From Nitrosopumilus sp. (GTDB lineage Archaea > Thermoproteota > Nitrososphaeria > Nitrososphaerales > Nitrosopumilaceae): a stretch of 64,000 bases of DNA. Location of the stretch: NCBI GenBank assembly GCA_965219345.1, contig OZ244732.1:608001-672000 (forward strand), written 5' to 3'. Of the stretch, positions 39,761 to 43,356 are shown piece by piece (the first letter of the stretch is position 1; the number at the start of each line of letters is the position of its first letter). The position numbers were made by a program, and so were the translations under genes. The notes under the pieces are model-generated. The model had not been told where the DNA came from. It made no database searches and saw nothing but the letters and a program-made list of their open reading frames with translations.

Positions 39761-39893
39761 ATTGAACAGTGTCGAATTTTTGTGGAATTAAACTAGTTTT
39801 TTGAGATCCAAAACTGAACACTTGGATAAAATTTATCATGTCCCTAGTTTACAGCAATTTGGACAGATCCCGTAGATTGAACAGTGCCGAATT
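39761..39893. repeat. 18-bp direct repeat (1 mismatch), with an inverted partial copy at 37556-37569
   Basis: ATTGAACAGTGTCGAATT (39761-39778), ATTGAACAGTGCCGAATT (39876-39893); rc TTGAACAGTTTCGA at 37556-37569. Confidence 0.75.
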
Positions 39894-39988
39894 GGTTCCT
39901 GCGCGTGCGCCTGATCCATCGCAATTCCGGACGCGGCCAACAGAAGGAGGCCGAGCGCGACGTGTTGGTATTGCATGCCGTTAATCAT
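39890..39988 (-). pseudogene. Signal-peptide stub of a truncated secreted protein
   Basis: MINGMQYQHVALGLLLLAASGIAMDQAHA|QEP, ending where GC drops. Confidence 0.6.
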
Positions 39989-41304
39989 GTTTTTCACCGC
40001 TCCTCACTTTGGCCGATTCTGGTATGTCTATTCTCTCAAGCCAGTCCTCGTCCAATTTCGAGATCTGGCCGATCCAGGCTATCTCGCCTGCAGTTGCCTC
40101 TATTGCGATCACCTGGGCCATTGAGCCACCATGGCCACCCCTCTCAACAAACGGAGGGTATTGGCAATATCCCACGAGCACAGTATAGAAAGGCACTCCG
40201 GCACGCATACCACGTCCAGCCAGTTCACCTTCATCAGCAGGTTCGAATGTGCACTTTTCTTCATCGTACAAATCCACATGCCTCATGGCAAAGTCAAAGG
40301 CAAGTTTTTCTATCTGGCTTGCTGGCAACAGGGTGCCTTCCTCATAATCATCAACCTGCAAGCCGCGAAATTCCAGTAGCAAGTACGGCTTGATGAAATC
40401 GTAATCGACGAAGCTCCAGACGCTCATGTTAAGCCAGCTTCCATACACAATTGTACCTGTACGTCCGCTGTTTAGTCCGAAGATTGGAAACCCTGCATTC
40501 TCCATGAGGGATCTGAGTAATTCGTCGCGCTCTCCGTATGGGATATTCTCGTATATCCTGTACTCTATCCTCGTTATGACATCCGGGTATTCCGAGTTTG
40601 ACCACGTACGGAACTTGTTGCCCATTTCGGTTACATATGTGACATGGCCGTATTCCGACCTGCTAACTGCCGGGAGGATCAGCTTGTCCCCGATTCCGCT
40701 TGCAAGGCGGGGCATGACGGTATTTACTGCCTCTTCCGTCAGGACCGGTAACCAGACTCCAGACGGGTTTGCCATTCTTTTTTCTACCCCGGACAGGGTT
40801 ATCTTGTTGTCTGCCACGTAGTAGAGCGGCTCGTACACGGATGTCAGGCTTTCATTTGCGGGGGGTGCATGGCCTGACACGGGCAGACTCGGGGACGTTT
40901 CAGATGCATCCGCGGGGGCACTTGGTTGTGCCGAGTCCGGGGTGCTGCCTGACTCTGGAGTGCCCGTTTTTTGTTCTGGTTGTGGCAACGCCTCCCATCC
41001 GCGCAGGACCAGTCTTTCTGCCGTGTCTGGATAGACGCATGCGATCGTGCCGCTGGGAGATCTTAGGAGGATCTTTTCATCATTGCACCGGACGTCGGCA
41101 ACTGCCACGCCCTGTTGCAGCTGCTTTAGGGGCGACGGCGCGTAAAGATGCGTCGGTGCCGCGTGTGCTGCCAGAGACCAGCAACACTGCCATCACGATG
41201 CAGAAAAGCGCGATAGTTGGGATGCCCAAGGCCGCGTTTTGGGAAACGCGCGAAAAGTGATCACCATGATGACAAGTTGTGGAATGCATGGGAACCATTA
41301 CCAT
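39981..41304 (-). pseudogene. GC-rich secreted protein with the thaumarchaeal SPLKQ...C...ACV...L..RGW domain; frameshift in signal peptide near 41175
   Basis: Frame A ...CIVMAVLLVS joins frame B LAAHAAPTHLYAPSPLKQLQQGVAVADVRC...IACVYPDTAERLVLRGW. Confidence 0.75.
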
Positions 41305-41406
41305 AATCCAAATTCAAAGTTAATAAGGAATTCTTCAATCGGTTCTGTAACATCTTCGGATGTTAGACATAAAATCAGATCTTATTCGTGTTAACTGCCG
41401 TCGCTT

Positions 41407-41547
41407 TTACAGAAAAAAGAATAGTGTTACCTTCAACCATCCGATTGCCCTCTCAAGAACATTGACATCCTCGTTGAATTTACCAATGCTAGAATTACAG
41501 CTTCCACATATCCGGCCCCTTATTTTCCTGTCTTGTGATTATGATAA
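41407..41547 (-). pseudogene. Endonuclease VII-family (His-Me) C-terminal remnant
   Basis: YHNHKTGK/(I)RGRICGSCNSSIGKFNEDVNVLERAIGWLK with a 1-nt frameshift. Confidence 0.7.
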
Positions 41548-42483
41548 GCCCTGTCATTTTGTGTGCATGGTTTTCATCATGTTTTCTTGTAGCTAATGTA
41601 AAGGAATATGCCCTAAAACTATGAGATGTAATTTTGTAAAATCCGTTTGATGAGTATTTTTCATTATATCCTAATCTTTCCAAGACACTTGCCATTGTCA
41701 TTCGTTCTGCTCTTCCCCTAGTTTTGAAATCTCCTGTACTATTTGTAAAAACATAATCATCATCATTTAATTTGTGAAAATAAGTCATAATTTTCTCTCC
41801 ATATTCTTTTGAAACAAATGTTGTTCTACCAGCTTTGGTTTTTGTATATTCAGCATCAATCCTAATTGTTATTCTATCCAATGACAAATCCAAATCTTTT
41901 TTCTTAATGTGCAGTGCCTCCCCTGATCTCATTCCAGAACTACTGCAAGCCAAATACAATGCCTGTCTCTTTAGATTACGTGCTTGAGCTATACCAAATC
42001 TCTTAGTTCTTGTTTCTTTAGTGGATATTTTTCTTCAACAATCTTTCTTGGAAATCTTAGTATCTGTTTGATGTCTTGAGGATTTGTTTTTACTCCTAGA
42101 GAATAAAGAAATGTTCTGAGTATACTAAATCTAGTTCTGATTGTATAAGCTCCTGCTTTCTTTGAAATATTCCAGTCTATCCATTCTTGAAGGAAACTAT
42201 ACAGTGCATCTTCATATTCTTCGTCTCCTTGTTGCTTTTTTATTATAATTAACTCCCCGCAGATTTGATCAGGTGTACTTTGATGCTTTTCTAGAACAAA
42301 TTTCTTAAAATTATTAATCGCAGCTTGAATATTTTCTCGTGAGTTTGTAGGTAACGAGACATGTATCACCGAGTTCTGTGCCTATTTTGATTTGGCTTGA
42401 ATATTTTCTCGTGAGTTTGTAGGTAACGAGGCTAATTTTTCTTCATAATCCCTTGTTGTTTTCTTTTTGGTAAGAATACTCAT
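41548..42483 (-). pseudogene. Tyrosine recombinase/integrase, disrupted by a 72-bp insertion, a frameshift near 41990 and C-terminal truncation
   Basis: SSGMRSGE (R), TKTK (K), HSFRAY (HxxR), ends at KMTG before the second His and catalytic Tyr. Confidence 0.9.
42323..42430. repeat. 36-bp perfect direct repeat flanking a 36-bp unique insert
   Basis: GCTTGAATATTTTCTCGTGAGTTTGTAGGTAACGAG at 42323-42358 and 42395-42430. Confidence 0.95.
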
Positions 42484-42609
42484 CTTTTCTCACCTCTATT
42501 GATTAGTTTTGATAAAATAGCTATTTGCGAATTTACGGGTTTTCTGGGAACTAATTTGCATAGGCCGTCTAGGTTTAACTTAATATAAGGAAATTCGAGA
42601 CCGAACACA

Positions 42610-43356
42610 TTGACTTTCGATAAAGGCTCATTAATTCTAGTAGACTATACTGCAAAGGTAAAAGATAGTGACGAGGTCTTTGATACCACCATTGAAGAGG
42701 ATGCAAAAAAACATTCTATTCATGAACAAAATGCCAAATATCAACCAAAACTAGTTTCAATTGGTGAAGTATCTTATCCTGTACTCAAAGGATTAGATGA
42801 AGCACTTGCAAAAACATCTGTTGGAGATAAACTTACAGTTGAAGTTACGCCTGACAAAGGTTTTGGTGAAAGAGATTCTAAAAAAGTTAGAATGATTCCT
42901 GTTAGAAAATTAGGTGACGATGCAGAGAAAGTTTCAGTAGGTGATACAATTGAAGTTGATAATAAAAGAGGAATTATACGTTTTATTGGATCTGGTAGAG
43001 TCCAAATGGATTACAACCATAGATATGCAGGAAAAACAATTCTATTTGATGTAAATGTAATCAAATCACTTGATTCTCCAAATGACAAGGTAGATGGAAT
43101 TCTTAAAAACAGACTACCTGTTGAGGACACAAAAATTACCTTTGACTTGAAGGATAAAGAAGTAAGCATTACAATTCCTGAGGAAATTCTACGTGCTGAT
43201 GGTTTACAAATAATGAAACACTTTATTCAATTAGATATTTTCAAGTTTGTTACAACCTTGGGAAAAGTGAGTTTTGTCGAAACACACGCCAACAAACAAA
43301 CTCAAGAAAAGAAACCTGAAATAAAAGAAAAAGTACCTGAACAAAAGGCTGCTTAA
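42610..43356 (+). CDS. FKBP-type peptidyl-prolyl isomerase (long SlyD-like)
   Basis: VDYTAK..VFDTT, KGLDEAL, PDKGFGER, DYNHRYAGK. Confidence 0.93.
   Translation: MTFDKGSLILVDYTAKVKDSDEVFDTTIEEDAKKHSIHEQNAKYQPKLVSIGEVSYPVLKGLDEALAKTSVGDKLTVEVTPDKGFGERDSKKVRMIPVRKLGDDAEKVSVGDTIEVDNKRGIIRFIGSGRVQMDYNHRYAGKTILFDVNVIKSLDSPNDKVDGILKNRLPVEDTKITFDLKDKEVSITIPEEILRADGLQIMKHFIQLDIFKFVTTLGKVSFVETHANKQTQEKKPEIKEKVPEQKAA

Follow-up and report, generated by a model that had tools for sequence, protein, structure and literature searches.

Very probable off-target spacer integration by a type I-G CRISPR-Cas system into an integrase pseudogene of Nitrosopumilus sp.

In the 5' part of a minus-strand tyrosine-integrase gene of Nitrosopumilus sp., 36 nt of coding sequence stand twice, on either side of an unrelated 36-nt insert, and we were interested how such a 108-nt unit came about. 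The gene lies in a stretch of 64,000 nt (the window), which corresponds to C1:608001-672000 of genome G000. An earlier note on this DNA had proposed a natural off-target adaptation event of a CRISPR (clusters of regularly interspaced short palindromic repeats) system, which seeded a one-spacer neo-array and disrupted a mobile element. From the 36/36/36 geometry, a matching array and adaptation machinery in the same genome, empty sites in relatives, the in-frame stop codon and about 30 sister units, the first part of this proposal is supported: the unit is very probably the footprint of a spacer that the genome's own type I-G Cas4/Cas1-Cas2 integrated at an ectopic (off-target) site. The conditions that the earlier note had named as refuting it were checked, and each turned out in its favour.

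Geometry of the unit and its empty site

A repeat search of the window led to two copies of GCTTGAATATTTTCTCGTGAGTTTGTAGGTAACGAG with a start-to-start distance of 72 nt (Table 1). The adjoining bases are different for the two copies at either side, and duplication and insert therefore each measure exactly 36 nt. The 36-mer occurs only at these two sites in the whole 1.91-Mb genome, and simple arithmetic shows that a perfect 36-nt repeat at a spacing of 72 is not expected by chance. Translation of the minus-strand gene gives MSILTKKKTTRDYEEKLASLPTNSRENIQAKSK*AQNSVIHVSLPTNSRENIQAAINNF..., in which the 12 codons of SLPTNSRENIQA are duplicated and the in-frame TAG is supplied by the insert. Repeat search, genome-wide counts and translation thus confirmed the perfect duplication, the unique insert and the new stop codon that the earlier note had described, and its expectation that removal of 72 bp restores the gene was borne out in other species.

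Table 1. Features of the integrase pseudogene and of the unit within it (window positions).
Feature	Position	Strand	Evidence and remarks
Tyrosine-integrase pseudogene hosting the unit	41495..42483	-	PF00589; 92% identity to G004 ortholog
Pseudo-repeat copy 1 (first on the strand of the gene)	42395..42430	-	CTCGTTACCTACAAACTCACGAGAAAATATTCAAGC; 100% identical to the other copy
Inserted 36-nt spacer	42359..42394	-	Minus-strand sequence CAAATCAAAATAGGCACAGAACTCGGTGATACATGT; one genomic occurrence
In-frame TAG stop from the insert	42382..42384	-	Translation
Target copy 2	42323..42358	-	Single copy in G004 and G036 orthologs
15 nt upstream of the target on the minus strand	42431..42445	-	TGAAGAAAAATTAGC; 8/15 like the CRISPR leader end TGAGAAAATGACAGG
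Second lesion, 1-nt deletion (frameshift) relative to G004	41992..41993	-	Alignment; separate frames 41989-42369 and 41495-41959
Third lesion, end of G004 homology	41550..41560	-	Last ~68 codons missing; tblastn covers residues 1-305 only

A search with the N-terminal fragment in 61 genomes of relatives, G000 included, yielded the ortholog in G004, where the integrase is an intact 373-aa frame, adjoins the same FKBP-type gene and reads ...EEKLASLPTNSRENIQATLNNF; the flank aligns at 82% over 1448 nt. In the DNA alignment, G004 and G036, two other species of the genus, each have the 36-mer once and show a gap of exactly 72 columns, reflecting one repeat plus the insert. The unit therefore arose by insertion; it is no ancestral repeat. 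Replication slippage or template switching, leading to a tandem duplication with a diverged middle, or a native 24-aa protein repeat may be thought of because the period of 72 nt equals 24 codons and because some period-75 clusters in another genome (G018, see below) look like native protein repeats. The copies here are 100% identical with sharp edges, their middle is related neither to them nor to anything nearby, orthologs are devoid of the whole 72 nt and the insert carries a stop codon, which makes this origin next to negligible.

To look for support of the junction, four runs from three studies were used in the form of assembled contigs and not as raw reads, and these contigs were aligned to window positions 41300-43300. 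Record 3 of X19, a 96-nt contig spanning 42329-42424, bridges repeat, insert and repeat with zero differences at a depth of 82 (flanks 96-105), and a 36-nt contig of the same run has a depth of 170, about twice that of its neighbours, as a two-copy word should. The same pattern was obtained for X21, whereas longer contigs were found in X23 (record 14, 1341 nt, gapless over 41300-42580) and X24 (record 22, covering 41589-42397). The repeat-insert junction is thus present in contigs from three studies, one of which spans the unit without a gap. Chimeric reads, adapters or mis-joined repeats, as artefacts of sequencing or assembly, might hide in contigs, in particular if some contigs stem from the assembly's own data. 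Such an artefact would have to recur in about 30 units of the same geometry, all matching the CRISPR geometry, and in a second species as well, and it would not be expected to copy 36-40-nt pieces from distant places while duplicating exactly 36 nt of the target. We therefore consider an artefact very improbable.

The resident type I-G CRISPR-Cas system

A complete type I-G locus with Cas4/Cas1 fusion, Cas2, Cas3g, Cas8g, Cas7g and Csb2 is located about 1 Mb from the window. Cas1 (PF01867) was detected at C1:1640274-1641116 with 313 bits as part of a 561-aa open frame for the Cas4/Cas1 fusion, which scores 754 bits with the Cas4g/Cas1g model (cut-off 560), and Cas2 is encoded directly next to it. 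The order is cas4/1, cas2 and array, followed beyond the array and on the other strand by Csb2, Csb1/Cas7g, Cas8g1/Csx17 and Cas3g. As all six NCBIfam models (Cas4g/Cas1g, Cas2, Csb2, Csb1/Cas7g, Cas8g1/Csx17 and Cas3g) are above their cut-offs and the genes flank the array, the locus is a complete type I-G locus. The single array (C1:1641728-1653821) contains 164 copies of ATTTCCATAACGAAAAAGTTATGGCCCCATTGAAGC, 163 of them exact. The repeat is exactly 36 nt long, with adjoining columns that are not conserved (commonest base in at most 77/163), and the spacers measure 35-53 nt, most often 36 nt (37/163), then 37 (35) and 38 nt (34). Repeat length and modal spacer length are thus both 36 nt, so that duplication and insert in the window fit the single resident system, as the search for cas1/cas2 and arrays suggested in the earlier note had been meant to reveal.

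'Array A' (C1:1127417-1130746), a candidate for a second array, was rejected, as it is a 60/120-nt tandem repeat inside a 1600-aa reading frame. A comparison of the leader across four species showed no obvious defect in that of G000. Two array spacers, C1:1645417 and 1653455, overlap by 23-24 nt in opposite orientation, indicating that one foreign region was sampled twice. Between the array repeats of G009/G014 and those of G000/G354, a compensatory stem pair was observed (CCGTAAC...GTTACGG and CCATAAC...GTTATGG; L022:3621-4590 and L023:3620-4609 compared with L003:19729-19764). Outside Nitrosopumilaceae, the Cas4/Cas1 fusion is most similar (50-57% identity) to sequences from Caldilineaceae and Dehalococcoidia (L162-L189), which suggests that the system may have been transferred horizontally between distant lineages.

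Sister units in the genome

Units of similar build were searched for in the whole genome by two scans. Exact self-comparison (spacings of 20-200 nt, two-copy repeats of at least 28 nt outside the array) gave 33 isolated two-copy repeats, 23 of which have a period of 70-76 nt. When mismatches were tolerated (at least 29/36 matches, spacing 40-130) and compact single-period clusters were counted, 30 of 50 clusters fell into the same band of 70-76 (binomial P=3.8e-21 for a uniform expectation of 7/91 periods). As clusters 37490 and 243305 go back to a single event, copied along with the duplicated element that contains it, 29 unique events are left; the scan for further repeat-spacer-repeat units with 36-nt parts proposed in the earlier note thus returned about 30. 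A unit at C1:1432749-1432916 was excluded from the event count. It consists of repeat-spacer-repeat-spacer-repeat with a period of 73 and the same spacer twice, and looks like an ectopic event that was later tandem-duplicated by recombination between its own repeats.

Perfect repeats were found in 17 events, with lengths of 35 (1), 36 (9), 37 (4) and 38 nt (3), which fits a fixed duplication of 36 nt with an occasional chance match of the next base. This constancy of 36 bp between targets of unrelated sequence suggests that the length is measured by the complex itself, as by a ruler. With the duplication taken as 36 nt, the implied ectopic spacers are 34-40 nt long (median 37), with no difference in length from the array spacers (Kolmogorov-Smirnov P=0.42; Mann-Whitney P=0.053), and the mean GC content is 0.42 in both sets compared to 0.36 for the genome. 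Four further events have empty sites in relatives, namely 426363 (in G002), 43479 (in G354), and 869602 and 1504869 (both in G018). The events are moderately clustered along the genome (7 gaps below 6.1 kb vs 2.5 expected, P=0.007).

In silico removal of one repeat and the spacer lengthens the open frame at many ectopic sites, joining frames of 439 and 257 aa to 666 aa, of 185 and 173 to 303, and of 138 and 192 to 261. Pfam searches identified the interrupted genes as those for an ABC-transporter permease (BPD_transp_1 matched by both halves), a UDP-glucose/GDP-mannose dehydrogenase (N-terminal and central domains on separate pieces), an IS1595-type transposase, an FMN reductase and a Big_9-domain protein. 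The interruption of permease, dehydrogenase, reductase, transposase and the integrase in the window points to a price that the host pays for spacer adaptation.

A 4943-codon open frame on the minus strand (C1:77523-92351) harbours an in-frame 75-nt ectopic unit at 88227 (L030, C1:87600-93000), and a second ectopic unit, 92343, is found at its 5' end.

Origin of the inserted spacers

Matches to other places on the same chromosome were obtained for 8 of the 29 unique ectopic spacers; six of these matches are perfect and span the whole spacer, one has a single mismatch and one is partial. Among the 163 array spacers, by contrast, there is not one with a full-length self match (Fisher P=1e-7; P=9e-7 without the partial match). 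As the matches are at distant loci, these spacers were copied like prespacers and not generated locally. The contrast between the two sets points to selection against autoimmunity in the array, and the tolerance of self-matching spacers at ectopic sites would be expected if the ectopic units are not used in interference. Three of the seven self-derived protospacers (C1:523291, 561910 and 575144) lie within 52 kb near the cumulative GC-skew maximum (~580 kb), an observation resting on small numbers, and another (C1:1636412) is about 3 kb upstream of cas4/1.

The insert in the window has no second copy nearby or elsewhere in the G000 genome. Exact searches of viral_contigs and metagenome_contigs were negative, as were a comparison with 300 other genomes of the family, in which up to 3 mismatches were tolerated, and a blastn search of 50,697 phage records. 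The comparison with viruses and host that had been recommended to find its source thus returned none, and with it no protospacer-adjacent motif (PAM).

Target sites and a possible route of integration

Compared with the leader end (15 nt) plus repeat (36 nt), the ectopic sites reach a mean of 17.6 matches vs 15.15 +/- 0.53 for random sites (P<2e-4), a difference to be read with the higher GC content of the targets in mind (0.44 vs 0.36 for the genome). Random sites were scored in the better orientation, and for repeats of more than 36 nt additional offsets were permitted. By this score, the ectopic sites appear to resemble the natural substrate weakly, that is slightly but significantly. On the minus strand of the window site, the resemblance to the leader end (Table 1) is accompanied by 7/8 identical positions between the last 8 nt, ATTCAAGC, and the 3' end of the true repeat, ATTGAAGC. 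Leader plus distal 8 nt place this site in the top 0.019% of genome positions, with a metric that was picked after seeing the site. Counting the 28 ends of the 14 G000 events with repeats of exactly 36 nt, we observed a half-site preference for G/C at +1 (21/28), T at +2 (16), G at +4 (19, P=9e-9) and A at +7 (17); the G at +4 is to be taken as an unconfirmed observation.

Another target feature was rejected. Several targets looked palindromic by eye, but neither the mean folding energy (-4.23 vs -4.17 for GC-matched random 36-mers, P=0.45) nor the mean longest stem (4.00 vs 4.03, P=0.58) revealed an enrichment of hairpins.

The unit may be explained by a Cas4/1-Cas2 complex loaded with a 36-bp prespacer, probably of foreign origin, which would have engaged the 5' part of the integrase gene and not the leader-repeat junction, at a minus-strand site that loosely mimics the leader end (8/15) and the distal repeat end (7/8). 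Two strand-transfer attacks on opposite strands, 36 bp apart, would then reflect the stagger used on the true 36-bp repeat, and subsequent gap repair would have duplicated the 36-bp target. Responsible enzyme, order of steps and the role of site mimicry in guiding the choice are deduced here from sequence comparison and should be taken as the probable course.

Other genomes of the genus

Of 61 genomes sampled from the genus, 5 (one of them G000) have a Cas4g/Cas1g above the cut-off. G354, a second species, has the identical array repeat in 131 copies, and 13 of the 29 clusters in its first 1.2 Mb have a period of 71-73 (P=7e-8). Some of these are copies in repeated elements, so that about 10 unique events are left; their perfect repeats are all 36 nt long (3/3) and one spacer is self-derived. 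For the G354 events 935517 and 416383, empty sites are found in G000, and a less clean one for 786587. Two genomes with neither Cas1 nor such a repeat were scanned over their first 0.8 Mb. In G002, 1 of 12 clusters is in the band (P=0.62). In G018, 8 of 13 clusters are at 71-75, and it was therefore dropped as a negative control, with G002 serving as the clean one. Three of the G018 clusters look like native repeats, and some with period 75 resemble protein repeats with blurred edges.

These genomes also bear on the question whether the insertion was due not to the CRISPR Cas1 but to a different integrase or a tiny mobile element that duplicates 36 bp of target, for instance a casposase or another recombinase. 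Nitrosopumilus genomes carry casposons (PMC8464041), G018 has similar decayed units though it is free of Cas1 today, and G000 contains a second, isolated Cas1-like fragment (C1:1123019-1123234; L005:7020-7235) with no array nearby. This fragment is the sole other Cas1 match in the genome, covers only profile positions 210-281 in an 83-aa open frame, and may be the remnant of a casposon or of a second system. The casposases of Nitrosopumilus share with our case the Cas1-family integrase, target duplication, ruler-like mechanism and genus, but according to the passages on them in PMC8464041 they duplicate 13-14 bp and act on elements with terminal inverted repeats and kilobase cargo. Here, the duplication is 36 bp, the 36-nt insert is without cargo and no intact casposase is present in G000. 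The difference between 13-14 and 36 bp excludes the casposon route, and the reference to casposons in the earlier note turned out to be beside the point. Moreover, the inserts share no sequence, their lengths of 34-40 nt follow the distribution of the array spacers, the duplication length equals the repeat length, and the Cas1-free G002 is without excess. An integrase other than the resident Cas1 is thus improbable.

Several findings weigh against off-target integration by the resident type I-G system. In 0.8 Mb of G018, free of Cas1 and of the repeat, there are about 5 sharp but decayed units with a period of 71-74, 0-3 mismatches and lengths of 32-38 nt (e.g. 239962, 414492, 418790, 497855 and 749913; L068-L107). 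They are possibly fossils of a lost CRISPR system and represent the main loose end. The pseudo-repeat agrees with the true repeat at only 13/36 positions overall, and the G at +4 is neither seen at the canonical repeat ends nor reproduced in G354 (2/10 ends of five events). Searches among viral, metagenome, family-genome and phage sequences gave no protospacer for the window insert, hence no PAM. A TTN-type PAM would be expected of type I-G; only 3/7 self-derived protospacers have such a flank. With regard to the contigs, the runs may include the source data of the assembly (X19-X22 are the best matches), and cells without the insertion cannot be revealed by them, the repeat of 36 nt being longer than the assembly word. 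Runs X1-X18, with shares of 0.20-0.25, were not counted as evidence, and no weight is given to the parts of the stretch that X24 leaves uncovered.

Functional state of the unit

That the event seeded a neo-array, as the earlier note had put it, is overstated: no ectopic unit in G000 has gained a second, different spacer, and the pseudo-repeat is without the 7-bp hairpin of the true repeat (-3.9 vs -8.3 kcal/mol). What would be the array has a repeat outside the family of the system, no comparable stem and one spacer, and self-targets occur in 8/29 of its sisters. As the processing hairpin is missing and the self-matching spacers of the sister units would be lethal if used for interference, the unit in the integrase gene is most likely inert as CRISPR.

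Mini-CRISPR arrays directed against competing elements occur in some archaeal viruses. A functional mini-array of the mobile element would agree with the position in a mobile-element gene and with the last 8 nt of the pseudo-repeat, which are 7/8 identical to part of the would-be 5' handle of the CRISPR RNA. We give it a very low probability, as the pseudo-repeat shows the poor match to the host repeat and the missing hairpin described above, the unit interrupts a reading frame, orthologous elements do without it and sister units lie in ordinary cellular genes.

Comparison with known systems

Nivala, Shipman and Church (Nat Microbiol 2018) reportedly described off-target ('neo-CRISPR') integration by Cas1-Cas2 in E. 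coli. According to the passages of 10.1101/148544 and PMC7054753 considered here, it was shown in E. coli over-producing Cas1-Cas2, and what was found in two other species is called 'circumstantial evidence' (10.1101/148544). The footprint in the integrase gene resembles that case in the spacer-length insert outside arrays, the repeat-length duplication and the resident adaptation machinery. The E. coli events were due to over-produced type I-E Cas1-Cas2 in a laboratory strain, whereas those described here are natural, fixed and about 30 in number, are ascribed to an archaeal type I-G Cas4/Cas1 fusion, include many self-derived spacers and disrupted genes, and did not lead to array growth.

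For type I-G Cas4/1-Cas2, PMC10504553 reports a lower precision of integration at the spacer side than at the leader side, as well as products at non-specific sites when the prespacers are unprocessed. Protein family and expected prespacer size are as in this canonical adaptation; the target here is coding sequence and the PAM flank is inconsistent (3/7). Without host factors, the Thermotoga profunda type III-A Cas1-Cas2 integrates promiscuously in vitro; the integrase alone discriminates poorly between CRISPR and non-CRISPR DNA (PMC13769266). That work concerns plasmids in vitro and another CRISPR type, and genomic footprints are not described in the passages of it that we consulted.

Isolated repeat-spacer units far from cas genes are said to have been reported by Shmakov et al. 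in 2020, with off-target integration as one possible origin. Such orphan arrays usually carry recognisable repeats of a CRISPR family, whereas each 'repeat' here is local target sequence. For annotation, it follows as a warning that a lone 'repeat-spacer-repeat' unit within a gene may be a scar instead of an array. Literature searches gave no description of such footprints in Nitrosopumilus, with supplementary files, which may contain natural examples, outside the search.

The event belongs to a known kind, and its interest is raised by the scale, the natural setting and the contrast in self-matching spacers. Judged from the passages available, a process demonstrated until now mainly in engineered E. 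coli is encountered here in nature and on a large scale. The approximately 30 similar scars suggest that misfires are a recurring, gene-breaking cost of CRISPR immunity. Beyond this, we lean slightly towards a more general view, in which the adaptation complex of marine Nitrosopumilus with this type I-G system would often act as a natural insertional mutagen and put spacers into ordinary chromosomal DNA, its 36-bp stagger being fixed and independent of the repeat sequence. The footprints would then form an unselected record of capture, with about a quarter of self DNA that is purged from the array, and may outlast the CRISPR system itself, as the decayed units of G018 would illustrate. If true, footprint scans would give a measure of what natural CRISPR adaptation costs unnoticed and of the bias in its raw sampling, and could expose CRISPR systems that a lineage has since lost. 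About 30 fixed events in one wild archaeal genome, and more in a second species, also make several questions answerable from sequence: what sets the repeat length, how much self DNA is captured, what the host pays and which target features attract the enzyme.

Further lesions of the integrase gene

The proposed disruption of a mobile element holds insofar as the integrase frame (PF00589 match at window positions 41495-41959, E=1.9e-10) is interrupted by the stop codon of the insert. As two further lesions are present (Table 1) and the order of the three is indeterminable, the spacer insertion cannot be named as the one that first killed the integrase. The missing last ~68 codons are not found anywhere else in the genome.

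The truncated integrase end directly adjoins a GC-rich island (39800-41400, 50-60% GC vs ~33% around it), in which a 375-aa frame on the minus strand (39981-41108) has no Pfam match. Run X23 contains a far more abundant relative (depth ~6000 vs ~4 for this strain) that matches the FKBP-type gene at ~90% and diverges left of 42470; the integrase is therefore absent from this site in the relative.

On the minus strand, the integrase breakpoint comes directly after AAAATGACAGG, and the CRISPR leader ends with the very same 11 nt. This 11-mer has only 5 occurrences in the genome, and G004 carries AAAATGACTGG at that place. The coincidence could be due to chance or to a second, abortive attack of Cas1 at a leader-like site.

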